Source: Kofleriaceae bacterium
GTDB taxonomy: Bacteria > Myxococcota_A > Polyangia > Haliangiales > Haliangiaceae
NCBI GenBank assembly: GCA_015075455.1
Contig: JABTUH010000016.1
Span: forward strand, 64,001 to 128,000
DNA: 64,000 bases
Reading direction: 5' to 3'
The translations under genes and the position numbers were made by a program. The notes under the pieces are model-generated. The model worked only from the letters and a program-made list of their open reading frames with translations. It did not search any database and was not told the DNA's origin. Positions 12,574 through 56,257 of the stretch are shown here, one piece after another; position 1 is the stretch's first letter, and each line of letters starts with the position of its first letter.

Positions 12574-15507
12574 ATGGGCTGGACGAACTGGATGACGATG
12601 ACGCTGGTGCTGGCCGCGGTCGCGGGCTGCACCGAGGGAGTGATCGTGGGCGGCGGCGGCGGGTCGCGGTACGACCGCGAGGTCAAGGGCGGCAACCTCC
12701 ACCACGCGGCGGTCGAGGGCGCGAGCCGGACCGACCTCGATCTCGGGCGCGTCCTGGCGAGCGCGCCGGCGCTGGCGCCCGCGGTGGGGCCGCTGGCGGC
12801 GGGTGACTTCACGATCACCACCGCCACCTCGCGCGGGGCGACCGGGCGACCGCTGATCCACGCGATGGCCCAGCAGCACGTCGGCGGCGTGCCCATCGTC
12901 GACAGCCACCTCTACCTGACGGTGGCGCCGGGGCCGGGCCAGGGCGAGGGCCAGCTCGTGGCGTCGAGCTACCGCCTCTTCCACGGCGCCGACGTCGACG
13001 TGACCCCGTCCGTCGATCGCGCCCGGGCCGAGGCCCGGGCCCGCGCGGTGCTGCGCGCCCCGGCCGACGCCGCCGTGCGCGAGGCGCGGCTGGTGATCCG
13101 CGAGCGGAGCGGCGCGCTCGCCCTGGTGTGGGACGTGACCCTCGATGGTCACGACGGCCGCGCCCTGATCCACGCCAGCGGCCCGCGCGCCGGCACCGCC
13201 GACGTGCTCGACGATCGGGTGTACGAGACCAGCGGCACGGTGTCGGCGTGGGTCGCGGTCGGCGGCGCCCCCGGCGCCGGCGGCGAGCCGCGGCTGGTCG
13301 CCCAGGCCGACACGATGGTCCTCGCCGGCGTGGTGTCGACCTCGACCGCCGGCGACGGTCGCTACCTCCTGGCCGCGCCGGCCGGCTCGATCGTGACGAC
13401 GACCGTCGCCGGGCTCGCGGCGCTGGTCACGGACGTCGGCGGGCTCGCGGTCGAGGCCTCGGCCCCGGCCGCGCCGGAGGTCGACCTGACCCTGGGCGGC
13501 GCCAGCGAGCGCGAGCTGGCCATGACCACCGCCTACCACTTCACGACCGCGGCGCGCCGCTTCCTGCTCGCCAACGGCGTCCCCGCCAGCGTGCTGGGCG
13601 CGCCGCTCGCCACCCGGGTCAACCTGGCCTCGACGTGCAACGCCTACTACTCGCCGGCGGGGCGCACGATCAACTTCTTCCGCGCCGGCGGCGGCTGCAA
13701 CAACAGCGCCGAGGCCAGCATCATCGCCCACGAGTACGGCCACTTCGTGGACGACACCTTCGGCGGCATCACCGACGGCGGGCTGAGCGAGGGCTGGGGC
13801 GATCTGCTGGCCTGCTTCCTCCTCCGCGATCCGGTGATCGGCGGCGATCTGTTCCACTCGAGCGGCCAGCTCCGGACCTGCGACAACGACTACCGCTACC
13901 CGCGCAGCGGCCACGACAGCGTCCACGAGCTGGGGCAGGCGTGGTCCGGGTTCGCCTGGCACGCCCGCGCCGGCCTCATGGCCGCGCACGGCGCCGAGGC
14001 CGGCGAGGCCCGCGCCCGCGCCCTGATCATGCCGTCCCTGGTCACCAACGCGCCCGACATCCCGGCCGCGGTGCGCGAGGTCTTCCTGCGCGACGACGAC
14101 GATGGCGACCTGCGCAACGGGACCCCGAACTGGGACGTGCTCCTGGCCGCGGCCGAGCGCCACGGCCTGCGCTTCGCCGTCGACGTCGACCACGGCCCGC
14201 CCGGCGCCGTCACCGATCTGATCGCGACCGCGGTCACCCCCACCACCGTCACCCTGCGCTGGACCGCGCCCGGTGATGACGGCGATCACGGCACCGCCGC
14301 GCGCTACGAGCTGCGCTGGGCGCTCGAGCCCATCGACGAGGCCAGCTTCGCCGCCGCCGCTCACCTGCCGGCCCCGGCGCCGCTGCCGGCGGGTCACCTC
14401 CAGACCACGACCGTGTCGGTGCCGCCGGTCGAGCGGCTCTACCTGGCGCTGCGCGCCATCGACGAGCTCGACCACGCCGGCGCGCTCTCGAACGTGATCG
14501 AGGTCGAGCTGCCGGCGCCCCGGGTGATCTGGAGCGACGGCGCCGAGGCCGGCCTCGGCCCGTGGCAGGCGACCGGGCTGTGGCACGTCAGCGAGCGACG
14601 GGCGGCGGCGGGCCAGCGCGCCTTCCGCTACGGCGACGACGCCACCGGCACCTACGACACGCCCGGCCGGGCCAACCAGGGCGCGCTGCTGTCGCCGATC
14701 ATCGACCTCGACGCGGCCGTCGCGCCCCGCCTGACCTGGCGCGAGCATGTCGACGTCGAGGAGTCGACGACCTACGACCTGCTCCGGGTCGAGGTCTTCG
14801 ACGTCGACGATCCTTCGATCGCGGTCAGCGGCGAGAAGCTCCACGGCCGCACCGCCGGGTTCACGCCGCGCCTCGTCGACCTGAGCGGGCTGGTCGGTCG
14901 GCGGGTCCGGATCCGCCTGTGGTTCGACACCGTCGACGCGGCGATCAACGACGGCGAGGGCTGGTACGTCGACGAGCTGCGCGTGCTCGGCGACCAGGGG
15001 CCGGCGCCGGAGCCGCCCGCCGGCGGCCGCCTCCTCGTCAACGAGCTGCTCGCCGATCCGCCGGCCGGCTACGACGCCAGCGGCGACGGGATCGCCAGCC
15101 CCACCGCCGACGAGTTCGTCGAGCTCGTGAACATCGGCGACCGGCCGCTCGACCTCGGCGGGGCCACCATCACCGACGACGTCGCGGTGCGCGGCACGTT
15201 CCCACCCGGGACCGTGCTGGCCCCGGGCGAGGTCCTGGTCCTGTTCGGCGGCGGCGTGCCGGCGCTGCCCGGCGTCCGCACCATGGTCCTCGGCCCGCTC
15301 GCGCTCAACAACGGCGGCGACACCGTGACCATCCGCGGCGCCGGCGGCGAGGTCCTGGCCCAGCTCGCCTACGGCAGCGCCGCCGGGGACGACCAGTCGC
15401 TCACCCGCGCGGTCGACCACGACCCCGAGGCCCCGCTCGTCAAGCACCGCACGCTCTCGTCCGCCCCGGCCTCACCCGGCCGGCGCGCCACCGACCCCGT
15501 GCCCTGA
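12574..15507 (+). CDS. secreted zinc metalloprotease lipoprotein (gluzincin HExxH...E, M4/M36-like) with an FN3-like segment and a C-terminal lamin-tail domain
   Basis: ATG at 12574, with RBS GGAGAG 8 nt upstream. Lipobox LAAVAGC. The metal site is HEYGHFVDD...SEGWGD. The lamin-tail-domain-like C-terminus reads LLVNELLADP...EFVELVNIGDRPLDLGGATI. Confidence 0.85.
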   Translation: MGWTNWMTMTLVLAAVAGCTEGVIVGGGGGSRYDREVKGGNLHHAAVEGASRTDLDLGRVLASAPALAPAVGPLAAGDFTITTATSRGATGRPLIHAMAQQHVGGVPIVDSHLYLTVAPGPGQGEGQLVASSYRLFHGADVDVTPSVDRARAEARARAVLRAPADAAVREARLVIRERSGALALVWDVTLDGHDGRALIHASGPRAGTADVLDDRVYETSGTVSAWVAVGGAPGAGGEPRLVAQADTMVLAGVVSTSTAGDGRYLLAAPAGSIVTTTVAGLAALVTDVGGLAVEASAPAAPEVDLTLGGASERELAMTTAYHFTTAARRFLLANGVPASVLGAPLATRVNLASTCNAYYSPAGRTINFFRAGGGCNNSAEASIIAHEYGHFVDDTFGGITDGGLSEGWGDLLACFLLRDPVIGGDLFHSSGQLRTCDNDYRYPRSGHDSVHELGQAWSGFAWHARAGLMAAHGAEAGEARARALIMPSLVTNAPDIPAAVREVFLRDDDDGDLRNGTPNWDVLLAAAERHGLRFAVDVDHGPPGAVTDLIATAVTPTTVTLRWTAPGDDGDHGTAARYELRWALEPIDEASFAAAAHLPAPAPLPAGHLQTTTVSVPPVERLYLALRAIDELDHAGALSNVIEVELPAPRVIWSDGAEAGLGPWQATGLWHVSERRAAAGQRAFRYGDDATGTYDTPGRANQGALLSPIIDLDAAVAPRLTWREHVDVEESTTYDLLRVEVFDVDDPSIAVSGEKLHGRTAGFTPRLVDLSGLVGRRVRIRLWFDTVDAAINDGEGWYVDELRVLGDQGPAPEPPAGGRLLVNELLADPPAGYDASGDGIASPTADEFVELVNIGDRPLDLGGATITDDVAVRGTFPPGTVLAPGEVLVLFGGGVPALPGVRTMVLGPLALNNGGDTVTIRGAGGEVLAQLAYGSAAGDDQSLTRAVDHDPEAPLVKHRTLSSAPASPGRRATDPVP

Positions 15508-15592: not shown

Positions 15593-17061
15593 TCACGGGC
15601 CGTAGAGCGTGCCCTGCGGGGCGCGCTCCTCGATCAGCCGCAGCATCGCCGCCGCCAGCTCGACCTCGGGCGTGAGCGTCGGATCGGCGAGCGCGGCGGC
15701 GTCGGCGGCGAAGCGGTCGTGGGCGGCGCGCATGATCGTGGTGGCGAGCGCCGGATCACCCGCGTACGAGGCCGCGGCGTCGTGCATGCCCGACACCAGG
15801 AGGGCCAGCGCCGTGGTCCGGGCCGTCGCCTCCTGGGCGAACCAGTGGCCGCGCTCGTCGAGGGGCGCGCCGTCGCGGCTCGCGCGCAGCGTGGTCACCC
15901 GCGGCACGCCGGCCGGGTTGACCCACCGCAGCTCGGCGTCGGCGTAGGCCAGCGCCAGGGCGCCCTCCTCGGCCTCGACCAGCGACACCAGCAGGGCGCC
16001 GCGGCGCTTCGACAGGAACACGGTCGCGACCTCGAGCCGGGGCTCCTCGCCGAAGCCGACCGGAAAGCCGTAGCCCTGCTCGATCGCCAGGCCCGCGCTG
16101 TGGCGGACCTCGACGCCGAGATCGTAGGCGATGGGCGACGCGAACCACGGCCACTCGTCGGCCATGAAGCTCGCCACGTCCTCGGCCCGCTGCATGCTGA
16201 AGGCGTTGGCGCCGCGGACCTTGGCCATGCTCTGCAGCACCTCGGGGCCGACGCCGAGGCCCAGGGCCAGGACCGAGATGTGGACGCCGTCGGCGGCGCC
16301 CCGGCTGACCAGGTCGTCGAACGCGGTGGGCGAGGTCGGGCCGACGTTGGGCTGGACGTCGGTGAACAGCACCACCCGCACGTGCGGGCGACCGGCGGCC
16401 CGCGCCTGCCGCCCCAGCTCGTAGGCGCGCACCAGCCCGCCGTGCATGTCGGTCGCCCCGCCCTCGCGCAGGCCGTCGACGACGCCCCGGATCGCGGCCT
16501 TGTCGGCGCCGCTGGTCAGGCCCAGGGGCGTGCGCACCGAGCTGCCGTAGGTGACGATCGCGACCTGATCGCCGCCGTCGATCGCGTCGACCAGCCCGTG
16601 CATCAGCCGCCGCGACAGGTAGCCGGGAGTCGGGTACTCCTCGCCGCCGCTGCCCCAGCCCATGGAGCCCGACACGTCGACCGCGAAGATGAAGGTGGTG
16701 GCCGGGCGCTGGAACAGCTCGGGCACGACGTTGGACGACAGCCCGACCTGCAGCCAGCCCCGCGGGTCGCCGTCGCGGTCGGGGGCCACCCCCAGCGCGG
16801 TGCGCAGGCACAGGGTGTCGTTGCACGGCGCGCCGGTCAGCCCGAGGTCGTGCTCGGCGAACATGGCCTCGACCAGGAGCGCGGCCGCCGGCGGGATCTG
16901 TCCGTTGGCGATGAGCTCGCGGGCCAGCTTCAGGTCCTTGACCCCACCCGGGGTCGCGCCGAAGTCGCCGCCGCCGGAACCGTGGAGGTCGCCACCGCAG
17001 GCCGCGGCCAGGGCGAGGAGCGGGGCCAGGAGGATGGAACGCGCGACGCGGTGGTGTCTCA
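15593..17061 (-). CDS. von Willebrand factor type A (VWA) domain lipoprotein
   Basis: ATG at 17061 gives MRHHRVARSILLAPLLALAAAC|GG (lipobox). The VWA MIDAS motif is FIFAVDVSGSMG... Confidence 0.8.
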
Positions 17062-17226
17062 TGCGCCCTCCCCCTCGCACCCGCCGTACCAGCCCACCGC
17101 GGGACGGTCCGCGTACTTGGCGGCCGCGGGTCGAGCGCGTGGCCCGGGGACAGGACATCGATGTCGCGCTCGCGGTCGGGGGCCCCGCCGCCGTGCGCGC
17201 CCTCGCCGCCGGATATACTCGGCGCG

Positions 17227-20200
17227 ATGAGCGAAGGCCCAGGCGCGAGGTCCTCCCGGCGTGGTTCGGCCACCGCACGCCGCCGGCGCAAGGTGGCGTG
17301 GGCGCACCGCCTGCGCCGGGTCGGGATGGCGTGGCAGAACGCGATCGAGATCGTCCGCGCCGGCCGGCTGACCGCCCCCTACGGCGCGCCGTTCGCGATC
17401 GCCCACGAGACCCCGATCTACAAGCTCCGGCACTACCGCGCCGACGACGTACCGGCGCGCGGCGCGCCGCTCCTCCTGGTGCCGCCGCTGATGGTCGCCT
17501 CCGAGGTCTACGACATCGCGCCCGACATCAGCTCGATCAACTACCTGACCCGGGCCGGCGTCGACGTCTGGCTCACCGACTTCGGCGCCCCCGAGCGCGA
17601 GGCCGGCGGCATGGAGCGGACCCTCGACGATCACGTGCGGGCGGTGTCCGACGCCGTCGACCGGGTCCGCGCCGCCACCGGCCGCGACGTCCACCTCGCC
17701 GGCTACTCCCAGGGCGGCATGTTCGCCTACCAGGTGGCGGCCTTCCGCCGCTCCGCCGGCCTGGCCTCGGTCATCACCTTCGGCAGCCCGGTCGACATCC
17801 ACCGCACCGTGCCCATCGCCGACCAGCTCGTCGAGCGCATGGTCGCCGGGCTGCAGCGCGCGGTCACCCTGCCCCTCGATCACATCGACGGCCTGCCCGG
17901 CTTCCTGACCTCGACCGGCTTCCGGCTGCTGAGCGCGCGCAAGGAGATCGGCCAGCTCTTCGACTTCGTCAGCAAGCTGCACGATCGCTCGGCGCTGGAG
18001 AAGCGCGAGGCCCGCCGCCTGTTCCTCGGCGGCCAGGGCTTCGTGGCCTGGCCGGGGCCGGCGCTGCGCAAGTTCATCGACGAGATCATCGTCGCCAACC
18101 GCATGACCTCGGGCGGCATCGTCATCGACGGCCACGCCGTGACCCTGGCCGACATCAGCTCGCCCATCCTCTACTTCCTGGGCGAGCGCGACGAGATGGG
18201 CCGGCCGGCGGCGGTGCGCGGCATCCGCAAGGCGGTGCCGGCGGTCGAGGCGCTGTACGAGGTCCCGGTCAAGGCCGGCCACTTCGGCCTGGTGGTGGGC
18301 TCGACCGCGCTCGCGATCACCTGGCCGACCGTGGTCGAGTGGATCCGCTGGCGCGACGGCGACGGCCCGCCGCCGGTGCGCGCGGTGCCGGTGCCGACGC
18401 GGGACGCCGGCGGCGCCGCCGGGCGCGGCGCCCGGGACGAGGACGACGACGGTCGCGACGAGGCCGACGACGAGGCCGACGCCGGCGTCGACGACGACGA
18501 CATCGAGGCCGCGTTCGGCGAGCTGCAGTTCGACCTCGAGCTGGTGCAGGACGTGATCGGCAACACCGCGCGCGCCGTCCTCGACCGCATCGGCGACGTC
18601 AGCACCGATCTCGGCGACTACCTCGACAACCTGCGCTGGCAGGTGCCGCGCCTGCGCCGCCTGCGCAACCTGCGCGACGACACCGCGATCTCGCTGGGGC
18701 GGACGCTGGCCGATCAGGCCCGCACCATCCCCGAGCGCACGTTCTTCCTGTGGAAGGACCGGGCCTTCACCTACGCCGAGGCCAACCGCCGGGTCGACGC
18801 CGTTGCCCGCGGCCTCATGCAGTGCGGGGTCCGCCCCGGGCTCCGGGTGGCGGTGCTGATGGGCGGGCGGCCCAGCTACTTCTCGGCGGTGACCGCGCTG
18901 TCGCGGATCGGCGCGGTGGCGGTCCTGATCGCCCCCGCCACCCCCGACGCCGCGCTCGGCCGCGCCTTCGACGTCGGCGAGTGCGAGGCCGTGATCGCCG
19001 ATCCCGAGCTGGCGCCGCGGGTGCGGGCGGTGTGGGCCGGCAAGCTGCTGGTGCTGGGCGGCGCCCACGACGCCCGCGCCCTGCCCGCCGGCGCCGTCGA
19101 CCTCGAGGCCATCGATCCGGCGGCGCAGCCCCCGCCCGCCTGGTACCGTCCGGATCCCGGACGCGCTCGCGATCTGGCCCTGGTCTTCGTCTCCGGCGGC
19201 GCGTTCTCGGCGCCGCGGGCCAGCCGCATCACCAACCGGCGCTGGGCGTTCTCGGCCCTGGGCGCCGCCGCCACCTGCACCCTGTCCAACCGCGACACCG
19301 TCTACTGCTGTCTGCCGCTCCACCACCCGACCGCGATGCTGGTCGCCGCCGGCAGCGCCCTGGCCGGCGGCGCCCGCCTCGCCCTGGCCTCGGAGTTCCG
19401 CCCCGACGTGTTCTGGCGCGAGGTCCGCCGCTACGGCGTGACCGTCGTGTACTACGCGGGCGAGCTGTGCCGGCCGCTGGTGCTGGCGCCGCCGATGCTG
19501 GGCGAGCACAACCACCCGATCCGCCTGTTCGCCGGCTCGGGCATGCGCCCCGATCTGTGGCGCAAGCTGCTCGACCGGTTCGGCCCGGTCGGCGTGCTCG
19601 AGTTCTACGCCTCGACCGAGGCCTCGGCGGTGCTGGCCAACGCCTCGGGGCAGAAGGTGGGCGCCGTGGGGCGCCCGCTGCCGGGCAGCCCGGAGCTGGC
19701 GATCGCCGCCTACGACTTCGACGCCGACGAGCTGATCCGCGACGCCGCCGGCCGGCTGGTGCGCGCCCGCGTCGACGAGCCCGGCATGCTGGTGACCCGG
19801 CTCGACTCGCCGCGCGGCATCGCCGACGTCGCCCACCTGCCGCCGGCCCGTCTGCTGCGCGACGCCTTCGCCCCCGGCGACACCTGGTTCTTCTCCGGCG
19901 ACATCCTGACGATCGACGGCGACGGCGACTACTGGTTCGTCGATCGCTGGGGCGACACGATCCGCACCGCCGCCGGACCGGTCACCACCCGCCGCATCGA
20001 GGACGCGCTGCACGGCGTGCCGGCGGTGCTGGCATGCGCGGCGGTCGGCGTGACCATGACCGGCGAGCCGGGCGAGGTGCCGGCCGCCGCGTTCGCGCTC
20101 ACCGCCGGCGCCGCGCTCGATCTCGCCGCGCTGTCGGCGGCGGTGGCGACTCTGCCCGAGCACATGCGCCCGCGCCGCCTGCGCCGGGTCGAGGGCATCC

Positions 20201-20394
20201 CCATGACCGACGGCTTCCGCCCGCTCAAGAAGCCCATCCAGGATCTCGGCTTCGCCGACGGCCCCGACGTGTGGGCGTGGGACGCCGCCACCGCCAGCTA
20301 CCGCGGCACGGCGCGCGCCGCCGCCGCCGAGCCCGCCGCCACCGCCGAGCCCGCCGCCGACCGCGTGGGCCCGTCCACCGACCTGCTATCCTGA
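17227..20394 (+). CDS. bifunctional protein: N-terminal PhaC-like alpha/beta hydrolase (Ser in the lipase box) fused to an acyl-AMP ligase (FadD/FAAL-like adenylation domain)
   Basis: N-terminal ~400 aa: LLLVPPLMVASEVYDIAPDISSINYLTRAGVDVWLTDFGAP and a GYSQGG nucleophile elbow (PHA-synthase-like; the PhaC lipase box is GxCxGG). C-terminal ~600 aa: AMP-binding motifs (TFFLWKDRAFTYAEAN, YFLGERD..., LVFVSGGAFSAPR-like core, TGD-like DTWFFSGD, GDTIRTAAG). No carrier-protein domain is visible. An ATG at 17227 lies 8 nt after a TATACT element. Alternative in-frame starts: GTG at 17161 (MSRSRSGAPPP...) and ATG at 17326 (MAWQNAIEIVRAGRL...), the latter sitting just before the hydrolase domain. Confidence 0.8.
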   Translation: MSEGPGARSSRRGSATARRRRKVAWAHRLRRVGMAWQNAIEIVRAGRLTAPYGAPFAIAHETPIYKLRHYRADDVPARGAPLLLVPPLMVASEVYDIAPDISSINYLTRAGVDVWLTDFGAPEREAGGMERTLDDHVRAVSDAVDRVRAATGRDVHLAGYSQGGMFAYQVAAFRRSAGLASVITFGSPVDIHRTVPIADQLVERMVAGLQRAVTLPLDHIDGLPGFLTSTGFRLLSARKEIGQLFDFVSKLHDRSALEKREARRLFLGGQGFVAWPGPALRKFIDEIIVANRMTSGGIVIDGHAVTLADISSPILYFLGERDEMGRPAAVRGIRKAVPAVEALYEVPVKAGHFGLVVGSTALAITWPTVVEWIRWRDGDGPPPVRAVPVPTRDAGGAAGRGARDEDDDGRDEADDEADAGVDDDDIEAAFGELQFDLELVQDVIGNTARAVLDRIGDVSTDLGDYLDNLRWQVPRLRRLRNLRDDTAISLGRTLADQARTIPERTFFLWKDRAFTYAEANRRVDAVARGLMQCGVRPGLRVAVLMGGRPSYFSAVTALSRIGAVAVLIAPATPDAALGRAFDVGECEAVIADPELAPRVRAVWAGKLLVLGGAHDARALPAGAVDLEAIDPAAQPPPAWYRPDPGRARDLALVFVSGGAFSAPRASRITNRRWAFSALGAAATCTLSNRDTVYCCLPLHHPTAMLVAAGSALAGGARLALASEFRPDVFWREVRRYGVTVVYYAGELCRPLVLAPPMLGEHNHPIRLFAGSGMRPDLWRKLLDRFGPVGVLEFYASTEASAVLANASGQKVGAVGRPLPGSPELAIAAYDFDADELIRDAAGRLVRARVDEPGMLVTRLDSPRGIADVAHLPPARLLRDAFAPGDTWFFSGDILTIDGDGDYWFVDRWGDTIRTAAGPVTTRRIEDALHGVPAVLACAAVGVTMTGEPGEVPAAAFALTAGAALDLAALSAAVATLPEHMRPRRLRRVEGIPMTDGFRPLKKPIQDLGFADGPDVWAWDAATASYRGTARAAAAEPAATAEPAADRVGPSTDLLS

Positions 20395-20405
20395 GCCGGC
20401 GCCCG

Positions 20406-21245
20406 ATGATCCTGGCCTGCACCGCCTGCTCGCTCCGCCACGATGTCTCCGGGTACGGCGCCGGCCAGCTCTTCCGCTGCCGCTGCGGCCAGGTGCTGGC
20501 CATCGACGCCGCGCCGGCGCAGGCCGGGCTCCTGGCCTGCCCGCGCTGCGGCGCCGGCGTGGCGCCGACCGACCGGGCGTGCGGGCACTGCCAGGCCCCG
20601 CTGCTCCTGCGGAGCTGCCCGCGCTGCCTGGGGCGCGCCTTCCACGAGCACAAGCACTGCCCGGCGTGCGGCACCGCGCTCGACGTCGCCGCGGTCGGCG
20701 AGGCCACCGCCGAGCGGCCGTGTCCACGCTGCCCCGCGCCCATGCACCCGCGCCGCGTCGGCGATCTCGTGATCGACGAGTGCCTGACCTGCCACGGCGT
20801 CTTCCTCGATCACGTCGCGGTCCAGCGGGTGGTGACCGATCGCCAGCAGGCCCGGGCCGAGGCGATCCTGGCCACGGTGCCGCGGGCCGAGGTCGCGCCC
20901 ACCCACGCCGGCGGGCGGATGTACGTGAAGTGCCCGATGTGCGGCACGCTCATGAACCGCAAGCAGTTCAGCGCCGGCTCGGGGGTGATCATCGACGTCT
21001 GCCGCGCCCACGGCGCCTTCTTCGATCCCGGCGAGCTGCCCCACGTCATCACGTTCGTCATGAGCGGGGGCCTCGAGCAGGCGCAGCGGAAGGAGCTCGA
21101 GCGCGAGCGCGCGGCCATCCGGCGCGAGCGCGACAACGCGCAGTTCGCGGCCATGATGGCGGCGCGCTCGTCGACGCGCGCCCACGGCGAGACCCGCGAC
21201 CGCTCGGGCGCGCTGGTCGATCTGCTGCTCGCGCTGTGGCGCTAG
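20406..21245 (+). CDS. zinc-ribbon domain protein (three CxxC...CxxC modules) with a C-terminal charged/coiled-coil region
   Basis: ATG at 20406, 12 nt after the stop of the ligase fusion gene. The modules are CTACS...CRCG, CPRCG...CGHC, CPRC...CPAC, CPRC...CLTCHGVF and CPMCG...CRAHGAFFD. Confidence 0.7.
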   Translation: MILACTACSLRHDVSGYGAGQLFRCRCGQVLAIDAAPAQAGLLACPRCGAGVAPTDRACGHCQAPLLLRSCPRCLGRAFHEHKHCPACGTALDVAAVGEATAERPCPRCPAPMHPRRVGDLVIDECLTCHGVFLDHVAVQRVVTDRQQARAEAILATVPRAEVAPTHAGGRMYVKCPMCGTLMNRKQFSAGSGVIIDVCRAHGAFFDPGELPHVITFVMSGGLEQAQRKELERERAAIRRERDNAQFAAMMAARSSTRAHGETRDRSGALVDLLLALWR

Positions 21246-21333
21246 CGAGGCCTTCGGTGCGCGCCGACGCGTGCGCGCCCGGCCGCGGCGCGAGAGGAAG
21301 GACGCGCGCGGCCATCTGTGTGGTGAGACGGGG

Positions 21334-21405
21334 TGAGGGCGGTAGGACTCGAACCTACAACCAGCGGATTAAGAGTCCGATGCTCTACCATTGAGCTACG
21401 CCCCC
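21334..21405 (-). tRNA. tRNA-Lys (anticodon CTT)
   Basis: A manual cloverleaf fits: GGGGGCG/TA/GCTC-AATGGTA-GAGC/A/TCGGA-CTCTTAA-TCCGC/TGGTT/GTAGG-TTCGAGT-CCTAC/CGCCCTC-A. Length is 72 nt and CCA is not encoded. Confidence 0.85.
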
Positions 21406-21434
21406 GGACTTCTAAGCTATCCTCTTGTTTTCAG

Positions 21435-21508
21435 TGAGCTCGGGGCGACTCGAACGCCCGACCTACGGGTTCGAAGCCCGGCGCTCTATCCAACTGAGCT
21501 ACGAGCCC
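21435..21508 (-). tRNA. tRNA-Arg (anticodon TCG)
   Basis: GGGCTCG/TA/GCTC-AGTTGGATA-GAGC/G/CCGGG-CTTCGAA-CCCGT/AGGTC/GGGCG-TTCGAGT-CGCCC/CGAGCTC-A. The D arm is identical in type to known tRNA-Arg. There is one C:U mismatch at 27:43. Length is 74 nt. Confidence 0.8.
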
Positions 21509-21528
21509 TCGCGACGAGGCCGGCCGGA

Positions 21529-21557
21529 TAGATAGAGAACCCGCCGCGCGGTGTCAA
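21529..21557 (-). promoter_or_regulatory. sigma70-type promoter for the tRNA-Arg/tRNA-Lys operon
   Basis: On the minus strand: TTGACA (21557..21552), a 17-nt spacer, then TATCTA (21534..21529). The -10 lies 20 nt upstream of the tRNA-Arg 5' end. Confidence 0.5.
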
Positions 21558-21841
21558 GGGACCGGCCGCCGAAGTGCAGGCGCACGGCCTGCCGACCGGG
21601 GGATGGCCCCCGGATCGGGGGACGGCGCCTGTGGGTCAGCGCCCACACCGTGAGCATCACCCCACGTTTCGCTGGGGGGGAAGTCACCAGGAAGCGCCTG
21701 ATTTTTCAGGGGTTCGAAGCAGAAAGGGGCTTCAAGAAGCGGCCTGACCGCTATATCATGCTGCCGACATTGCCCGTGAGAGGCACCGCGGTCGCTCGGG
21801 AGGCGACCACGGTGTTCGACCAGACCGGGGAGGCCATCGCC

Positions 21842-24800
21842 GTGTTTAGCAAAGACTCGCGCATCAACATCCTGCTCACCCTCATGTTCCTCGCGCTCTC
21901 CGCGTGCGGCGGCTTCGGCTCCGGCTGCGGCTGCTCGCAGCAGCCCTTGCCCCCGGGAGGACTGCCCAGGGATCAGACGGTGGAAGGCGGCGGCCAGATC
22001 CGCGTCACCCGCGCCGGCTTCGAGAAGCTGACGTCGGTGGTCCCGGCGATCCTCAACGACTCGCTCGGCGGCGGCATGTGCATCGGCCGCACCAGCTTCC
22101 TCGGCGCCGACGTCTGCTACCAGACCACCGGCCCCAACGGGATGTGCGCCCCGGGCTGCTACGTCGCGATCAACGTCACCCAGACCCGGCTCACGGTCAC
22201 CAACCAGAACACGCTCAACGTCTACGTCCGCGCCAACGTCAACACCGCGGTCCGCATCGACCCGCCGCTCTTCAGCGCCTGCACGATGACCGTCACCGCC
22301 AACAACCTGTCGGCGGACCTCGACATCGGCTTCGCCATCGACCCGGCCACCGGCGAGCTGCGCATCCGGCTCAACCGCATCAACGACTACAACATCTCCG
22401 GCGTCAACTTCTCCGGCTGCTCGGTGCTGAGCTGGATCGGCGACCTCGCCGTCAGCCTGCTCGACTCGTTCCTGGGCCGCTTCATCGTCGACCTGCTGAC
22501 CCCGACCATCAACGACCTCATCCAGGGCTTCCTCCCGGACCCGCTCGGCATCGAGGGCATGGTGGACATCGGCCAGCTCATGGCCGGCGTCTCCCCCGGC
22601 ACCGAGGGCTTCATGGAGGCGCGGATGGTGCCCGGCGGCTACGTGCAGCTCGGCGGCGGCGGCATGTCGCTCGGCCTCATCACCGGCCTCAACGCCGACC
22701 AGGATCCGTCGACCCGCACCCCGGCGCTCGACAGCGAGCCGGCGTACTGCGTCCCGCCGCTGCCCGCGCCCAACTTCGCGGCGCCGCCGGCCTCCTTGCC
22801 GGCCAGCTCGCGCGGCACGTTCACCCTCCTGCCCGCCGGCGCGTTCGTCGGCAACCCCGAGCCCGCCGACGATCTGGCCATCGGCATCTCCGAGACCACC
22901 CTCGACCTCGCCGGCCACCACCTCGTGACCTCGGGCGGCATGTGCCTGGGCGTCGGCACCGGCCTCGTCGACCAGCTCCGGCTGGGGACGATCGGCCTGC
23001 TGGTGCCGTCGGTGGGCGAGCTCGGCGACGGCAGCGAGCCGCTGCTCCTGGTCACCCGGCCGCAGCGCGCGATCGACTTCACGATCGGCGACGGCACCGA
23101 GGCGTCACCGGCGATCACGATCCACATCGACGACTTCGAGGTCGACTTCTACGGCTTCGTCTTCGAGCGCTACACCCGCGCCTTCACGATGTCGCTCGAC
23201 CTCAACGTCGGCATCAACCTCGAGTTCATCCAGCAGCCGGGCATGCCGGCGCAGGTGCGGCCCATCCTGGTCGGCCTGACCTCGTCGAACATCGGCATCA
23301 CCGTCCTCAACAACGAGTTCGTGCGCGAGACCCGCGACCAGCTCGAGGCCGTGCTGCCGACGGTGTTCGACCTCGCCCTGCCGCTCCTCGGCAGCGGCAT
23401 CGGCCCCATCGACGTCCCCGACTTCGCCGGCTTCACCCTCAACAACCTGCGGGTGCAGAAGGTCACGACCAGCGAGGACGAGTTCATGGCCATCTACGCG
23501 TCGCTGGGCGCGTCCATGATGATGCGCGACCGGGTCGAGACCTACCCCTCGCTGCAGCCGGTGATCGACGCCCTCGACCGCGAGACCGCGGTCGCGGCCT
23601 GGCCCGACGTGGTCCTGCTCGACCTCGCCCTCGACCCCGGCACCGGCGCCACCGTGGGCGGCACCGGTGCCCGCGCTCGCCTGCGCGCGGTCGACGTGCC
23701 GGCGCCCGAGGACGTGCGCGCCGCGCTGCTCGCCAAGGACCCCACCGGGCTGCCCCACGTCACGATCGACGTCGACACCCACGACGCCCTCGGCCGCCAG
23801 CTCGAGTGGAGCTGGAACCTGAACGGCGGCCTGTTCCGGCCGTTCACCACCGCCGCGCCCCTGGTCATCGCCGACCGCGCCTTCGCCTGGCAGGGCAAGT
23901 ACACGATCGGCCTGACCTCGCGCGTGGTCGGCGACTACCGCACGACCGCGCCCGAGACCGTCGAGGTCCCGGTCGTGATCGACTCGGCGCCGCCGAAGAT
24001 CCACGCCGACCAGGCGCGCTGGCGCGGCACCCGGCTCCACGTGCCGGCCACCGACGCCGTCTACGACGCCGACGAGCTGCAGTGGGCGTGGGGCCGGCCC
24101 GGCGACGACGAGCCGTCGACCGACTGGGCCAAGGACGCGTCGATCGACCGCGCCACCGCCGCCGACCTCTCGCTCGACGACGAGCTCCTGGTGTTCGTCC
24201 GCGATCCCAGCGGCAACGTCGGCCAGGCGCTGGCCAAGAGCGGCTTCCACGGCCAGCCCGGCGAGAGCGGCTGCAACTGCAGCGCGCCCGGCCAGGGTCC
24301 GAGCGCCGGCTCGCTGCTGCTCCTGGCCCTGGTCGGAGCGTGGCTGCTTTTTCGCCGTCGCGCCGCGACCGTCGCCCGGGTCGTCGCGCGCGCTAGCTCG
24401 GGTCGGGCCCTGTCGCAGCTCGCGCTCTTCGTCGGCGTGAGCGTGGCCGCCTCGCTGGTCCCCGGCTGCTCGTGCGGCAACAGCGCCGGCCAGGCCTGCG
24501 AGATCACCGAGGACTGCGCCAACTTCGAGTGTCCGTCGGGCCAGATCGCGATCTGCTTCGAGGGCGAGTGCTTCTGCACCGACGACGTGCCCTACGGCAA
24601 GATCGGCTCGTTCTCCGACGTCGCGGTGGCGCCCAACGAGGACGCCATCGTCAGCGCCTACGCCGCGTTCCACGGCGACCTGGTGGTGGCACGCTTCTCC
24701 GGCGCCGGCCGCATCCCCAACGAGGCCTGGGAGTGGGTCGACGGCGTCCCCGCCGGCCCGGTGGCCCTGCCCGACTCCGACGTCCGCGGCGGCATCCTCG

Positions 24801-25819
24801 AGCCCGGCGACGACGTCGGGCTCTACACCAGCGTCGCGATCGGCGCCGCCGACGTCCCGATGGTCTCGTACCACGCCCGCGAGGACGCCTCGCTCAAGTT
24901 CGCCGCCAAGTACGGCGGGGCCTGGCACAACCACGTCGTCGACTCCGGCACCGGCGACGTCGACCCCGAGATCGGCGGCGAGGCGGCCGGCATGTTCACC
25001 TCGATCAGCCTGGGCAGCGACGGCCGCCCCGGCATCGCCTACATGGCCACGCAGTCGCAGGGCGGCGGCATCGTCACCGCCGAGGTCCGCTTCGCCCAGG
25101 CCACCACCGCCCAGCCCATGAGCTCGGCCGACTGGACCGTCACCGTGCTCGACATGATGACGCTGCCCCCGGCCGATCCCAACGCCGTCGACATCTACCC
25201 GCTGCCGGGCGGGGTCGGCCTGTTCGTCGAGTCGACCCGCGACCTCGACGGCCACCCGGTCGTCGTCTACTACGATCGCCAGAACGGCGACCTCAAGATG
25301 GTGCGCGGCAACGCCACCGGCTTCGCCGCCCCCGTGGTGCTGGCCGGGCAGACCACCGACGACGGCTGGTACCCCTCGGTGTCGGTGGACGCCGCCGGCG
25401 TCCCCCACGTCGCCTTCCAGGGCGCCGACCACGACGACGTCTTCTACCTGAACACCGGGACCATGACCCGCGAGATGGTCGACGACGGCTACCGCATCGT
25501 CGGCACCACCCCCGACGGCCTGCCCAAGCCCGAGTACCACTTCGTCGGCTCCGACACCCAGATCGTCATGACCCCGGCGACGCCGTACGTCATCTACCAG
25601 GACTCGACCACCCACGAACTGCTGGCGGCGTCCAAGAACGGCGACACCTGGCGGCCCGAGCCCATCGCCGGCGCCGAGGCCACCTTCGTCGGCGCCTACG
25701 GCTTCTTCGCGTCGGCGGCGCTCGGCACCTCCCAGATCACGGTCTCGACCTGGGTCCTCCACCAGGCGCTCAACGACAACTGGGTCGAGGTCTTCCGCCT
25801 GCCGATCGGCCCGCAGTAG
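21842..25819 (+). CDS. very large lipoprotein ORF; the N-terminal ~840 aa domain ends in a MYXO-CTERM-like motif and is followed in-frame by a second hydrophobic segment and a ~470 aa beta-propeller-like domain (possibly two genes fused or read through)
   Basis: GTG at 21842 is preceded by GGGGAGG 8 nt upstream. The lipoprotein signal is MFSKDSRINILLTLMFLALSAC|GG. At ~24260-24350 the motif GCNCSAPGQGPSAGSLLLLALVGAWLLFRRR appears (Cys motif, TM helix, Arg tail). There is no stop until 25819. A second hydrophobic stretch LSQLALFVGVSVAASLVPGCSC has no in-frame ATG/GTG/TTG before it. Confidence 0.6.
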   Translation: MFSKDSRINILLTLMFLALSACGGFGSGCGCSQQPLPPGGLPRDQTVEGGGQIRVTRAGFEKLTSVVPAILNDSLGGGMCIGRTSFLGADVCYQTTGPNGMCAPGCYVAINVTQTRLTVTNQNTLNVYVRANVNTAVRIDPPLFSACTMTVTANNLSADLDIGFAIDPATGELRIRLNRINDYNISGVNFSGCSVLSWIGDLAVSLLDSFLGRFIVDLLTPTINDLIQGFLPDPLGIEGMVDIGQLMAGVSPGTEGFMEARMVPGGYVQLGGGGMSLGLITGLNADQDPSTRTPALDSEPAYCVPPLPAPNFAAPPASLPASSRGTFTLLPAGAFVGNPEPADDLAIGISETTLDLAGHHLVTSGGMCLGVGTGLVDQLRLGTIGLLVPSVGELGDGSEPLLLVTRPQRAIDFTIGDGTEASPAITIHIDDFEVDFYGFVFERYTRAFTMSLDLNVGINLEFIQQPGMPAQVRPILVGLTSSNIGITVLNNEFVRETRDQLEAVLPTVFDLALPLLGSGIGPIDVPDFAGFTLNNLRVQKVTTSEDEFMAIYASLGASMMMRDRVETYPSLQPVIDALDRETAVAAWPDVVLLDLALDPGTGATVGGTGARARLRAVDVPAPEDVRAALLAKDPTGLPHVTIDVDTHDALGRQLEWSWNLNGGLFRPFTTAAPLVIADRAFAWQGKYTIGLTSRVVGDYRTTAPETVEVPVVIDSAPPKIHADQARWRGTRLHVPATDAVYDADELQWAWGRPGDDEPSTDWAKDASIDRATAADLSLDDELLVFVRDPSGNVGQALAKSGFHGQPGESGCNCSAPGQGPSAGSLLLLALVGAWLLFRRRAATVARVVARASSGRALSQLALFVGVSVAASLVPGCSCGNSAGQACEITEDCANFECPSGQIAICFEGECFCTDDVPYGKIGSFSDVAVAPNEDAIVSAYAAFHGDLVVARFSGAGRIPNEAWEWVDGVPAGPVALPDSDVRGGILEPGDDVGLYTSVAIGAADVPMVSYHAREDASLKFAAKYGGAWHNHVVDSGTGDVDPEIGGEAAGMFTSISLGSDGRPGIAYMATQSQGGGIVTAEVRFAQATTAQPMSSADWTVTVLDMMTLPPADPNAVDIYPLPGGVGLFVESTRDLDGHPVVVYYDRQNGDLKMVRGNATGFAAPVVLAGQTTDDGWYPSVSVDAAGVPHVAFQGADHDDVFYLNTGTMTREMVDDGYRIVGTTPDGLPKPEYHFVGSDTQIVMTPATPYVIYQDSTTHELLAASKNGDTWRPEPIAGAEATFVGAYGFFASAALGTSQITVSTWVLHQALNDNWVEVFRLPIGPQ

Positions 25820-25867: not shown

Positions 25868-26554
<687 letters not shown>

Positions 26555-39325: not shown

Positions 39326-41758
<2,433 letters not shown>

Positions 41759-44677
41759 CCCGCGACCTCCCGCCGCGGCCGCGTCGCGCCGCGGGCCCGC
41801 GCCCGGGCGCGGCGCCCCCCCACGCCCGCACCGGCGAGGAGCAGGAGCGCGACCAGCGCCGCCGCCGCCGCGCCGCCGCCCCCGCCGGCCTGGCAGCCGC
41901 CGCCCCCGCCCGCGGTGACGTACTCGTCGCGGCGACCGGCGTCGGGCGCCGGCACCGGCGGCACGTCGCAGGTGCCGCGGGTGCAGACCTCGCCGGCGCC
42001 GGGGCAGACCACGCCGAGGCACGGATCGCGCTCGCACTGCTGGGTGTCCGGGTTGCACGCCTGCCCCGCCGGGCACACCCGCCCGGTGCACGGATCGCGC
42101 ACGCACACGCCGTCGTCGTCGTCGCACAGGTAGCCCGGCGGACACGGGCCGTCGCACGGATCGGCGACGCACTGGCCGAGCTCGCAGCGCTGGCCGGCCG
42201 GGCAGTCGAGGGCGCCACAGCTCGTGACGCAGGCGCCGCCGGTGCAGTACTCGGCGGCGCCGGTGCAGCTCACGCCGTCGCACGGGTCGCTCTCGCACAC
42301 CCCGCCCACGCACTGCTGGCCGGCGGTGCAGTACTCCGGGAAGGTGGTGCAGTCGTCGGGGCGGCACTCGCCGAGCGCGCCGACGCAGACCTGGCCCGAG
42401 GGGCAGGTGACGCCGTCGCAGGCCCGCACGCAGCAGCCCTCACCGGTGCAGCCGCCGCCGGGCTGGCACACCTGGAGGTCGCCGCCGGGCAGGGTCGGAC
42501 ACGTCACCTCGTAGCAGACGTCGACGATGCAGAACCCCTGCGAGCAGGTGCGCCCGGCCGGGCACGGGAACTCGCCGCCGGCGCACGGCGGCGCGCACTG
42601 GCACTGGGTGCAGGTCTGGCCCGACGGGCACAGCGCCGGCGGCTCCTCGTCGGTCTGACCGTCGCAGTCGTTGTCGTCGCAGTCGCAGCGCTCGGGCTCG
42701 GACGGCGTGCCGCCCTGGCACACGTACGCGCCGCCGACGCAGCGCAGCACGCCGGGCATGCACAGCGGGGTGCCGTCGGGCGCGAGGTTGCACGGGCCCA
42801 TGTCGGGCACGCCGTTGTCGACGACGCCATCGCAGTCGTCGTCGAAGTTGTTGCAGACCTCGGGGCCGCCGCCGACGCTGCCCTCGCACTCGAGGACGCC
42901 GTTCACGCACACGGTCTGGCCGACGCCGCACGAGCTCGAGCAGTCGGCGCCGCCGGTGTCCTCGTCGACCAGCACGTCGCAGTCGTTGTCGATCGTGTCG
43001 CAGGTCTCGTCGGTGGGGCCGATCTCGCCCAGGCACGCGCCCCAGGTGCCGCCGCCGCCAGGTGGGCAGACCTGGATGCCGGGCTGACAGGGGCCGGTGT
43101 TGGGGTTGCCGCCGGGCAGGTTCGAGCACGAGCGGCTGAAGCCGTCGACCACCCCGTCGCAGTCGTTGTCGAGCCCGTCGCAGGTCTCGGCCGAGCCGCC
43201 GACGGCGGTGCAGCCGACCCAGGCCCCCAGCTCGCAGGTCTCGGTGCCGCGCACGCACTCGCCGACGTCGGTGCCGCAGTCGCGGACCAGCCCCTCGTCC
43301 ACCAGCATGTCGCAGTCGTCGTCGAGCCCGTTGCACAGCTCGACGTCGCCGCAGCCGACGCACGCGCCCTCGTCGATCGAGCCGTCGCAGTCGTCGTCGA
43401 GGTTGTTGCAGACCTCGGTGGTCGCCGGCTGCCCGGGGTTGGTGATCTGACACTCGGTGCCGTTGCCGGCGGCGTTGCAGACGCGAACGCCGGTGCCGCG
43501 GCAGATCCCCAGCCCGCCGTCGTCGCAGACCATCCCCTTGTTGGGGAAGTCCTCGTCGACCAGCGTGTCGCAGTCGTCGTCGAGGTCGTTGCACGACTCG
43601 AAGCGGATGGCGTCGGCGATGATCTGCGAGATCGCGAGCTGCAGCTCCTCCTCGTTCTGGGCGTAGGCGCCCTCGTTGACCCCGGGCACGTTGACCGCGC
43701 CGCCGGCGTGGGCCAGGCCCTCGATCTGGGCGTCGCCGGGCGTCTGACCGAAGCCGATGGGCTTGGTCTCGATGCGGTAGGTCTGGCCGCCGACGTTCGT
43801 GGTCAGGAGCGCGGTGGCGGCGGCGGTGGTGTTCGCGAAGGTCGTGCAGGTCTCGTCGCCGTCGGTGAGCATGATGACGATGTAGGGGCGGCACTGCGCG
43901 CCCGACGGCAGGAAGACGTCCTTGTAGGGGTCGTTGGCGATGGGCGCGAAGCCGGGCGCGCCGCTGGGCCACAGCTCGGTGCCGTTGGTGGCCTGCAGGC
44001 CCTGGAAGTAGCGCTGGGCGGAGCGGAGCGTGCCGGCGACCGGCGTCCAGCCGGCGCTGTACAGCTCGGGGTTCGACGTGATCGCGTTGCCGCAGGTGCC
44101 GCACGAGAAGTCGTTCCAGCGGGCGAGGTCGCCGCCGTTGCCGTCGACGAGCCCGACCAGGATCTCGCCGCGGGCGTCGTTCGACATCGTCGCGGTGCAG
44201 CCGCTGCCATTGCTGGGGTCGCACGCGCTGCAGTCGATCGCGCTGGCCGAGCAGCCGTTGGCGCAGTTGGTGTCGGTGGTGGTCGAGCGGAAGCGGCCGA
44301 GCCCCAGCACCATGTCGCCGTAGCTGTTGGCGATGTTGTAGATGGCGCACTTGGCGTGGTCGAGCCGCGAGTTGCCGGCGCCGGCGCAGCTCGCCGGCCC
44401 CGACGTGGTCGCGGAGTCCATCGACCCCGAGGTGTCGACCATCAGCAGCACGTAGGGCTTGAGCGCCTGGCCCGACTGCGCCTCGGCCCGCGCCGTGACC
44501 AGTCCCAGGACGACGAACGTGGCTACCCCGAGCCACGCGAGAGGGCGTCGCATCCGGCCATCCTAGGGCAGCGGCGCGCCCGACCGACAGCGCGATGCGG
44601 CGCCGCTACCCCACCGCGCACCGTCGGCGGGCCGCCAGGCTGTAGGTGGACGGGCGAGATCCGGCCCGCGGCGCCGA

Positions 44678-46303
44678 TCAAGCGAGGAGCGCGCGCGCGA
44701 TCACCTTCAGCACCAGGATCGGCTTCACGCCCTCGAAGATGGGCAGCACCAGCGCGTCCACGACGTAGCGGCTGATCGGGTACTCCTCGGCGTAGCCCCA
44801 GCCGCCGTGGAGGAGCTGGCCGGTCTGGGTGACCTCGACCGCCACGTCGCAGGCGAACAGCTTGGCCTGGGCGGCCAGCGGCGCGGCCGCGCGCTCGTCG
44901 CCGTCCATCGCCACCGCCGCCTCGTAGGTGATGGCGCGAGCGGCGGCCAGACGGCAGGCCATCCGGCCCAGGTGGTGCTGGGTCAGGCCGAACTCGATGA
45001 TCGGCTTGCCGAACTGGCCGCGGCTCGCCACGTACTCCGCGGTGCGCTCGAGCGCGGCCTGGGCCACGCCGCAGGCGCGACCGCCGGTCTGCAGGCGCCC
45101 GGCGGCGAAGCCGGCCATCTGCAGGTAGAAGCCCTTGCCCAGGCCGCCGGCCTCGCCGACCAGGTTGGCGGCGGGCACGAACCAGTCCTCGAAGGCGAGC
45201 GTGAACGAGTGCATGCCGCGGTAGCCGGGGGTGCGATCGGCCTTGCCGCTCAGGCGGCCGCCGCCGGGCTGGGTCGCCGCGAAGTCGTGGCCGTCGAAGC
45301 GCGGCTTCTCGACGATGAACAAGGACAGCCCGCGCGCGCCCTTCGTCGGATCGGCGTCGGTGCGGGCGAGCACCGCGATGACGTCGGCCCGCCCGGCGAA
45401 GGTGCACCAGGCCTTGGCGCCGTCGAGGACGTAGCCGTCCTGGCCGTCGCGGGTCGCCGGCTGGGCCCGGCAGGCCACCGCCGCCACGTCGCTGCCGACG
45501 TTGGGCTCGGTGACCGAGATCGCGACCATCAGCTCGCCGCCGCCGATGCGCGGCAGCCACGTCCGCTTCTGGGCCTCGGTGCCGCCGGCGAGCAGCGCCT
45601 TGGCCAGGATCTCGGGGCGAGTGATGAGCGAGCCGGCGCTGGCCAGGGACGCCCGCGATAGCTCCTCGGTGGTGAGGATCATGGCCAGGTTGCCCAGCTC
45701 GTGGCCGCCGTAGGCCTCGGGGATCGACAGGCCGAAGTAGCCGAGCTCGGCCATGGCCGCGATGAAGCGGTCGGGCACCAGCTCGTCGTGGCGGTGGATG
45801 TGCTCGGCGTGGGGCGCGACCTCCTTGTCGGCGAACGCGCGCACCGAGCTCCGGACCTCGGCCAGGGTGGGCTCGAGCGGCCACGGGTTCCGACCGCGGG
45901 CGGCGGCCACCTCGCGGCCGATGGCGCGGATCACCGCCTCGTTGCCCAGCCGGTGGAGCGCGGCGCGGGTGGCGGTGTCGTAGGCGGCGTCGATCCCGAG
46001 CTCGACCGCGATCGGATCGAGGCGGTCGCGCGCGCCGCGCGCGAGCTCGGCGACCGCGGCCAGCGCCGGATCGACGAAGGCCGGCGCGGCGCCCGGCGCG
46101 GCCGCGACCGCGGCGACCAGCGAGCGCGCCGCCCGCACCTCGGTGGCGGCGTAGGCGACCCGCTCGACGACGACCTGGTGGTCGTCGATGCGCTCGCCGC
46201 GAGCGGTGAGCTCGGTGGTGCGGGTCAGCGCGGCGGCGGTCAGCGCCTCGGCGGCGGCCAGGACCGCGCGCGCGTCGTCGAGCACAGGACGTGGATCGCT
46301 CAT
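44678..46303 (-). CDS. acyl-CoA dehydrogenase family protein (with an N-terminal extension)
   Basis: ATG at 46303 (alternative GTG at 46324). The ACAD middle and C-terminal domains read LMVAISVTEPNVGSD..., GQFGKPIIEFGLTQHHL and LLHGGWGYAEEYPISRY. Confidence 0.85.
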   Translation of the reverse strand: MSDPRPVLDDARAVLAAAEALTAAALTRTTELTARGERIDDHQVVVERVAYAATEVRAARSLVAAVAAAPGAAPAFVDPALAAVAELARGARDRLDPIAVELGIDAAYDTATRAALHRLGNEAVIRAIGREVAAARGRNPWPLEPTLAEVRSSVRAFADKEVAPHAEHIHRHDELVPDRFIAAMAELGYFGLSIPEAYGGHELGNLAMILTTEELSRASLASAGSLITRPEILAKALLAGGTEAQKRTWLPRIGGGELMVAISVTEPNVGSDVAAVACRAQPATRDGQDGYVLDGAKAWCTFAGRADVIAVLARTDADPTKGARGLSLFIVEKPRFDGHDFAATQPGGGRLSGKADRTPGYRGMHSFTLAFEDWFVPAANLVGEAGGLGKGFYLQMAGFAAGRLQTGGRACGVAQAALERTAEYVASRGQFGKPIIEFGLTQHHLGRMACRLAAARAITYEAAVAMDGDERAAAPLAAQAKLFACDVAVEVTQTGQLLHGGWGYAEEYPISRYVVDALVLPIFEGVKPILVLKVIARALLA

Positions 46304-46454
46304 GGGTGGTGGAGCGTACGTCACGCTCCCGCGACGGGGGATGGAATCTCGTGCGCTGAATCACGTACAACCAGGGTCGCGTCAACCGGCCGCACCCGTG
46401 ACGGCTCCATCATCGTGGGGGCGAGTGGCCGCGTCCCCCACCCCGAGGATCATC

Positions 46455-56122: not shown

Positions 56123-56223
56123 CGGGAACAGTCCAGACGATAGCATCTCCGTCCGACGACGCACCGCGCCGCCGATCACGGCCAGGACGCCGGCGGGGAC
56201 GGCACGACGCGACGACGCCGAAG

Positions 56224-56240: not shown

Positions 56241-56257
56241 TGTGATAGCGTGCCGCC

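Follow-up and report, generated by a model that had tools for sequence, protein, structure and literature searches.

What is the function of a protein in which a hydrolase domain resembling polyhydroxyalkanoate (PHA) synthase, PhaC, is joined within a single polypeptide to an AMP-binding domain? This question is raised by a gene within a 64,000-nucleotide stretch of DNA from a Kofleriaceae bacterium (GenBank assembly GCA_015075455.1, contig JABTUH010000016.1, positions 64,001 to 128,000; termed here the window). An earlier note, made from the sequence alone, had described the gene product as a PhaC-like alpha/beta-hydrolase fused to a complete fatty-acyl-AMP ligase (FAAL), and had suggested that acyl-adenylate formation is coupled directly to ester or amide transfer. 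The analysis described here points in a different direction. The interpretation favored, with modest confidence, is that the protein is a myxobacterial member of the Rv1683/BCG1721 family, that it hydrolyzes esters or triacylglycerol (TAG) at lipid bodies, and that its second domain, though derived from the ANL enzymes, is non-adenylating and serves for binding, regulation or targeting.

Judging from its sequence, the gene adds a myxobacterial representative to a known, catalogued and widespread family, NF005898/PRK07868 (Rv1683/BCG1721), which has already been studied; hence the fusion is not the novelty that had been implied. The hidden Markov model (HMM) of this family (an equivalog named 'acyl-CoA synthetase') covers residues 29-1036 of the protein with positions 12-985 of its 994-position profile and scores 916 bits, the curated cutoff being 925 bits. 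Actinobacterial members score 974-1864 bits, the upper value being that of P0143 (WP_235629923.1 of Mycolicibacterium novocastrense, a 50%-cluster representative), which shares 41% identity with the window protein across 1015 aligned positions; the 120 listed matches to P0143 itself are from Mycolicibacterium only, with identities of at least 86%. As in the family, one polypeptide carries an alpha/beta hydrolase at its N-terminus and an AMP-binding domain at its C-terminus, and there is a GxSxG serine (S150 of BCG1721) together with an aspartate and a histidine, which here are Ser161, Asp322 and His352. The likeness of architecture to Rv1683/BCG1721 extends from end to end, and in both the P-loop and the A10 lysine of the ANL domain are degenerate (the mycobacterial state being read from orthologues). 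The window protein differs in that it comes from the Myxococcota rather than the Actinobacteria, carries a long acidic linker together with an arginine-rich N-terminal extension, and keeps the STE, SGD and DR residues of motifs A5, A7 and A8, which mycobacterial proteins have lost. Altogether 917 cluster representatives match at E ≤1e-30, and relatives of the fusion span at least 595 species-level genomes. The best 80 of these are nearly all Myxococcota (Kofleriaceae/Haliangiaceae, Polyangiales, Sandaracinaceae and Nannocystaceae; the cultured Enhygromyxa salina, with homologues L053 and L065, is among them), and the nearest relatives, at 82-99% identity, occur in metagenome-assembled genomes (MAGs) of the Haliangiaceae (g_UBA2376) type. 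One Polyangiales MAG carries two paralogues of the fusion (L064 and L068).

The description of the N-terminal half as PhaC-like, with serine in place of the catalytic cysteine, proves correct on the basis of HMM, structural and conservation evidence. TIGR01836 (class III PhaC) matches residues 64-374 at 7e-31, though its 107.4 bits lie well below the family cutoff of 365.3. Within an AlphaFold2 (AF2) model of residues 1-402 the core is confident and the lid or cap (residues ~188-297) is poorly modeled; a Foldseek search with this model returns PhaC structures at PDB ranks 1-15 (5hz2, 5t6o, 5xav and 9knj among them; E ~1e-9), with monoacylglycerol lipases and other esterases ranking after them, which identifies a PhaC-type alpha/beta fold with a cap. 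The template-modeling (TM) scores of these matches are only 0.39-0.46 because the lid is poorly modeled. PhaC (class III TIGR01836; class I 5HZ2, 5T6O and 5XAV) is the nearest structural and HMM neighbor, sharing a box-like G-x-[C/S]-x-G-G motif, a conserved Asp and His, and the cap/lid insertion; it differs by its cysteine nucleophile, and the structural alignments show only 16-19% identity. Each of the motifs that had been cited can be found in the translation, namely LLLVPP at residue 82, SINYL at 103, VWLTDFGAP at 114 and GYSQGG at 159-164. Ser161, which corresponds to S150 of BCG1721, is invariant along with Asp322 and His352 in 34 diverse cluster representatives, and the motifs of all three are retained in each of the ~105 full-length fusion proteins for which motifs were tabulated (here L identifiers denote loci and P identifiers cluster representatives). 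GYSQGG occurs in 104 of the 105 (P0157 has AYSQGG), and the position of the PhaC cysteine is serine in all homologues examined.

The C-terminal half has the ANL (AMP-binding) fold, as had been proposed, but the kind of enzyme and its completeness had been misjudged. Its PF00501 score is 150.6 bits against a gathering cutoff of 29.9 bits, and its model, with predicted local distance difference test (pLDDT) values mostly of 80-95 and a Foldseek TMt of ~0.8 to ANL enzymes, indicates an intact fold. The nearest sequence relatives are the FATP and very-long-chain acyl-CoA synthetases (FATP2/SLC27A2, 9vzp; FadD6, PRK08279): human FATP2 is the closest in the PDB (7.6e-69 over 525 residues), and the domain scores 352.6 bits against PRK08279 (cutoff 625) and 251.6 bits against FadD6 (cutoff 975), thus reaching neither cutoff. 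FAALs are absent both from the top 60 PDB sequence matches and from the top 25 NCBIfam families, and the residue-level alignment to FATP2, which bears on the FAAL-specific insertion, contains only small gaps. Assignment as a FAAL was therefore rejected on similarity, the best matches being CoA ligases of the FATP/FadD6 type.

In common with the FATP enzymes, the domain has the A4, A5, A7 and A8-arginine residues and the overall fold; it differs from them in being fused to a hydrolase and in its catalytic motifs. The A3 motif, or P-loop, reads SGGAFSAPR where FATP2 and canonical family members have TSGTTGLPK; over its full length (VSGGAFSAPRAS) it departs from the pattern [ST][ST]G[ST][ST]GxPK and thus is lost. 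The A8 motif is DRWGDTIRTAAGPV as against the canonical DRVGDTFRWKGENV, so that the arginine and aspartate are kept and the remainder is lost ('RWKGENV' having become 'RTAAGPV'). At A10 the window protein has TDGFRPLKK for TGTFKHRK, with Arg998 in place of the catalytic lysine (the FATP2 entry 20zn has alanine at this lysine). Nucleotide-contact residues do persist, in A5 (YASTEAS), A7 (FSGD) and A8 (VDRWGD). In established ANL enzymology the TTG of the P-loop, the PK that follows and the A10 lysine are required for the adenylation half-reaction. Neither the P-loop nor the A10 lysine survives here, and the domain has therefore most likely lost the ability to form acyl-adenylate with ATP.

This degeneration is a property of most of the family. 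Only ~10 of the ~105 full-length proteins have canonical A3, A8 and A10 motifs together: all three occur in L059, L069, L071, L072, L078, L083, P0125 and P0146, with L061 and L085 being partial. In a neighbor-joining tree built from the hydrolase domain alone, these ten proteins and the near-canonical P0137 and P0144 form one clade. Against PRK08279, scores of 554-581 bits are reached by the canonical members, compared with 353 for the window protein. In the remaining members A3, the 'RWKGENV' segment of A8 and the A10 lysine are all lost together; the A10 position is arginine in nearly all of them, and most myxobacterial members fix 'PRA' and 'TDG[FY]RP[LI]K' in place of the canonical motifs. 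From mycobacterial, Dietzia and Tsukamurella members A5, A7 and the A8 arginine have disappeared as well, and in the Mycolicibacterium orthologues of Rv1683 (P0143, P0325, P0352, P0368 and P0403) A3, A5, A7, A8 and A10 are all degenerate. Thus no homologue examined lacks the hydrolase triad, while the ANL motifs survive in one small clade only, are partly lost in the window protein, and are wholly lost in the mycobacterial orthologues examined.

The ANL domain of the window lineage is nevertheless under clear purifying selection. Compared with other myxobacterial homologues, its N-subdomain is 57% identical, with 74 of 420 columns at least 95% conserved; the corresponding values for the hydrolase domain are 63% and 92 of 330. 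The N-subdomain being almost as conserved as the hydrolase domain, the ANL domain is kept by selection, though apparently not for canonical adenylation. The linker between the two halves, by comparison, is only 23% identical to these homologues. It has 21 acidic (D+E) and 4 basic (K+R) residues in positions 386-445, and pLDDT falls below 50 across residues 392-462. Given ~70 disordered residues and a predicted TM score (pTM) of 0.56 for the whole-protein model, no fixed interdomain interface is predicted. At the other end of the protein, AF2 places a helix at residues 15-46, of low pLDDT and within a region conserved in relatives; this arginine-rich helix may function in lipid-body or membrane association, or in dimerization.

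What the hydrolase acts upon is suggested by analogy with its characterized relatives. M. tuberculosis Rv1683 is identical to M. bovis BCG BCG1721, a TAG lipase of lipid droplets that is annotated as a 'bifunctional lipase/long-chain acyl-CoA synthase' (PMC10699116) and is associated with lipid inclusions (PMC10699116; PMC5571309, PMC6572852, PMC3503283). Overexpression of BCG1721 raised TAG under non-replicating conditions and accelerated TAG lipolysis upon reactivation, and the S150A substitution abolished the effect on lipolysis (PMC10699116). Only BCG1721 and its M. smegmatis orthologue are known to act as TAG lipases and to associate with lipid inclusions, MSMEG_3767 being 71.5% identical to BCG1721 (PMC6572852). 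Myxobacteria too make lipid bodies that contain TAG (PMC3950526).

From these considerations the following mechanism may be envisaged. Ser161, Asp322 and His352, held by a scaffold of PhaC type whose lid is mobile, would most likely catalyze the hydrolysis (or possibly the transacylation) of neutral-lipid esters, such as TAG, at lipid bodies. The flexible acidic linker would tether this hydrolase to a domain that descends from an acyl-CoA synthetase of the FATP/FadD6 type, that has lost its P-loop and A10 lysine in the window lineage, and that probably now has a ligand-binding, regulatory or targeting role involving a fatty acid, an acyl-CoA or an adenine nucleotide. In the myxobacterial clade, where adenine-nucleotide contact residues persist in sequence, such a module could gate the mobilization of lipid bodies through AMP, acyl-CoA or free fatty acid. 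While the architecture, family membership, motif states and conservation pattern are read directly from the sequences, TAG as the substrate, localization to lipid bodies and the loss of adenylation are inferences, the first two following what is reported for the mycobacterial homologue.

Several observations weigh against this interpretation. The substrate is extrapolated from an actinobacterial protein of 41% identity; the NF005898 score falls 9 bits short of the curated cutoff; and no lipid or PHA genes were found within ~10 kb of the fusion gene. The motif state of Rv1683 is itself inferred from Mycolicibacterium, Dietzia and Tsukamurella homologues, and reviews attribute to BCG1721 not only lipase but also acyl-CoA synthase activity (PMC6572852), so that for BCG1721 the degenerate motifs of its Mycolicibacterium orthologues and the literature stand in conflict. 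Finally, because A5, A7, the A8 arginine and a nearby conserved lysine (K1001) are kept in the window protein, it may still adenylate weakly or in an unusual manner.

More tentatively, the same reasoning may be extended to most of the Rv1683/PRK07868 family, the window protein included: the ANL half may be a conserved pseudoenzyme, which lost adenylation after the fusion and was kept as a sensor or regulator of the PhaC-like lipase. A literature search on ANL pseudoenzymes found no relevant paper. If true, this proposal would overturn the standing 'bifunctional lipase/ACSL' annotation, which belongs to a protein under study for its part in tuberculosis dormancy. Biochemical confirmation would revise the view of how Rv1683/BCG1721 works (with regard both to M. 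tuberculosis dormancy and to its being a benzoxaborole resistance locus), and would provide a natural series, from canonical through partly to fully degenerate, in which to study how an ANL domain becomes a pseudoenzyme. The window locus itself is of little consequence; the family-wide degeneration of the ANL domain is a useful by-product of its analysis.

The alternative that survives best, though it is judged unlikely, is that the protein is truly bifunctional, in which case fatty acids freed by the lipase would be activated to acyl-CoA by the ANL domain, its odd P-loop notwithstanding, and would thereby feed beta-oxidation or re-esterification. The family annotation and literature summaries say as much, and the domain is strongly conserved, is confidently folded and, in the myxobacterial clade, retains A5 STE, A7 SGD and A8 DR; furthermore, in a minority clade of the fusion the motifs are fully canonical, so that coupled chemistry plausibly exists there. 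Nevertheless, the substitutions fall at positions required for the adenylation half-reaction (variable residues for the TTG of the P-loop, PR for PK, and arginine for the A10 lysine); A3, A8 and A10 have been lost jointly across lineages; and in the actinobacterial members, that is, the very branch for which the activity is claimed, A5, A7 and A8 are gone too. The canonical proteins (e.g., P0125 and P0146, of Polyangiaceae; L059, L069, L072, L078 and L083) share the architecture and triad of the window protein, to which they are 45-50% identical, but form a separate clade in which TSGTTGxPK, DRxGDxxRWKGENV and the A10 lysine are still present; they are plausible bifunctional enzymes and the best candidates for a coupled lipase/acyl-CoA synthetase.

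Considerably less probable is a polyester enzyme, namely a variant PHA synthase or intracellular PHA depolymerase that acts on granules and whose ANL domain handles hydroxyacids. The TIGR01836 match, a weak Pfam match to PHB_depo_C (0.005), the PhaC structures at the head of the Foldseek list and the naming of some homologues in database entries as 'poly(3-hydroxyalkanoate) synthetase' would all accord with such a role. Against it, the defining cysteine is replaced by serine, the 107 bits fall far short of the 365-bit cutoff, the locus lacks PHA gene context (no phaE, phasin or phaAB genes being nearby), and the characterized homologue acts on TAG (PMC10699116).

The proposal from which this analysis began, a FAAL working with a PhaC-like domain to transfer acyl groups directly to an alcohol or amine and so to form an ester, amide or polyester without CoA, likewise appears very improbable. 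It correctly took account of the lack of a carrier-protein domain, and the PhaC-like fold is indeed an acyl-transfer scaffold; the reported rise in TAG upon overexpression of BCG1721 under non-replicating conditions (PMC10699116) might also be cited in its favor. However, the ANL domain is of the FATP/FadD6 CoA-ligase type, its adenylation motifs are degenerate, no fixed interface between the domains is predicted given the disordered linker and the pTM, and the nucleophile is serine, as in hydrolases, with the tested homologue behaving as a lipase (PMC10699116).

That the fusion is an artefact (two separate genes, or one of the long spurious open reading frames (ORFs) that abound in this ~75% GC window, such as the overlapping 16662..21245 in another frame) may be dismissed: the frame is open with a GC content at third codon positions (GC3) of 0.97, the two-domain architecture recurs as single ORFs in hundreds of genomes, and one HMM spans both halves. 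The gene encodes 1055 residues, ends with a TGA at 20392-20394, and contains no internal stop that would make two genes of it; its GC content at the three codon positions (0.75/0.54/0.97) is usual for coding sequence here. Pfam identifies three domains, Abhydrolase_1 (residues 104-357, 4.5e-8), AMP-binding (495-827, 7e-44) and AMP-binding_C (924-994, 1e-6), and no PP-binding or other carrier domain. The ATG at 17227 lies in frame within a larger open ORF (17161..20394, + strand), where an in-frame ATG at 17161 is a possible alternative start; because the N-terminal 'RGSATARRRR' is conserved in relatives, the protein must start at or before about residue 12. A scan of 16900-21700 for promoters and terminators detected nothing. 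Coordinates are collected in Table 1.

Table 1. Features of the fusion gene and its immediate surroundings (window positions; residue numbers refer to the fusion protein)
Feature	Position	Strand	Basis or remark
Fusion gene (PhaC-like Ser hydrolase, acidic linker, ANL domain)	17227..20394	+	ORF, translation, full-length NF005898 match
Arg-rich N-terminal helix (residues ~12-48; 12 K+R in 38 residues)	17260..17370	+	AF2, composition, conservation
Alpha/beta-hydrolase domain, PhaC type (residues 56-385)	17392..18381	+	Pfam Abhydrolase_1, TIGR01836, Foldseek
Nucleophile elbow GYSQGG	17701..17718	+	Ser161 codon 17707-17709; PhaC catalytic Cys position
Asp322, triad acid	18190..18192	+	Invariant in 34 cluster representatives; kept in homologue table
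His352 (AGHFG), triad base	18280..18282	+	Invariant in 34 cluster representatives; kept in homologue table
Acidic, poorly conserved, predicted-disordered linker (residues 386-445)	18382..18561	+	pLDDT, composition
ANL (AMP-binding) domain, FATP/FadD6 type (residues 486-1010)	18682..20256	+	Pfam 7e-44, FATP2 7.6e-69
Degenerate A3/P-loop VSGGAFSAPRAS (canonical TSGTTGxPKA)	19189..19224	+	Aligned against FATP2 and canonical members of the fusion family such as P0125 and P0146
Arg998 at the A10 catalytic lysine position (TDGFRPLKK vs TGTFKHRK)	20218..20220	+	Alignments
zf-TFIIB/DZR multi-zinc-ribbon protein (279 aa)	20406..21245	+	Pfam Zn_ribbon_TFIIB (two) and DZR
tRNA-Lys(CTT)	21332-21405	-	ARAGORN
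tRNA-Arg(TCG)	21434-21508	-	ARAGORN
Divergent VWA-domain gene (maximal ORF)	15593..17278	-	Pfam VWA

The zinc-ribbon gene does lie close downstream on the same strand, starting 11 nt (rather than 12, as the earlier note had it) past the TGA of the fusion gene, and the range 17227-21245 that had been assigned to the pair begins at the fusion ATG and ends with the zinc-ribbon gene, the fusion gene itself ending at 20394. Its GC3 is likewise 0.97, and it accounts for the last 279 codons of ORF 16662..21245, the only part of that ORF that is genuine. Its product is indeed a zinc-ribbon protein, though 'triple' undercounts the motifs, as it has four complete CxxC...CxxC pairs and a partial fifth; its family ('zf-TFIIB domain-containing protein') shows 55-70% identity across Kofleriaceae/Myxococcota MAGs.

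The supposed link between the two genes is not supported, and the zinc-ribbon gene is an incidental neighbor. A tblastn search found no match to it in the flanks of any of 86 fetched loci that contain fusion-gene homologues, and the genes downstream of the homologue differ among the relatives (L001, L002, L003, L004 and L006), so that its candidacy as a conserved partner was rejected. In a UBA2376 relative its orthologue lies ~9 kb downstream of the fusion gene, behind Prok-RING_4, peptidase M16 and kinase-WD40 genes. Adjacency in the window thus looks like the result of local gene loss rather than of operon partnership. A member of the zinc-ribbon family occurs at L087 (6001-6723), and in UBA2376 it comes after the Ser/Thr-kinase-WD40 gene. 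Downstream of the zinc-ribbon gene the + strand unit is bounded by the two tRNA genes on the opposite strand (21332-21508).

Among close relatives a single neighbor is conserved, namely the divergent VWA gene; it has tblastn matches in the five closest loci and the same arrangement in L001, L003, L004 and L006; its true start is suggested to lie near 17050, since its homologues are 478-491 residues long. A TPR gene follows the VWA gene in close relatives. The window instead has, at 12574-15507 (+), a gene for a 977-residue protein with a C-terminal lamin-tail domain where close relatives encode a ~1155-residue TPR protein on the other strand, which points to a rearrangement upstream of the VWA gene.

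Farther along the window, a 1422-residue ORF (21551-25819, +) directly follows the tRNA genes; it has a GC3 of 0.97 and no Pfam match at 1e-3, and a PhoU gene (25868-26554) comes next. Two very large ORFs on the - strand (39326-42439 and 41680-44562), which overlap as listed, contain repeated MopE-type putative metal-binding motifs. Neither the acyl-CoA dehydrogenase gene (44678-46360, -), which lies 24 kb away, nor the gene for the ferrous-iron transporter FeoB (56065-58629, +) has an evident link to the fusion gene.

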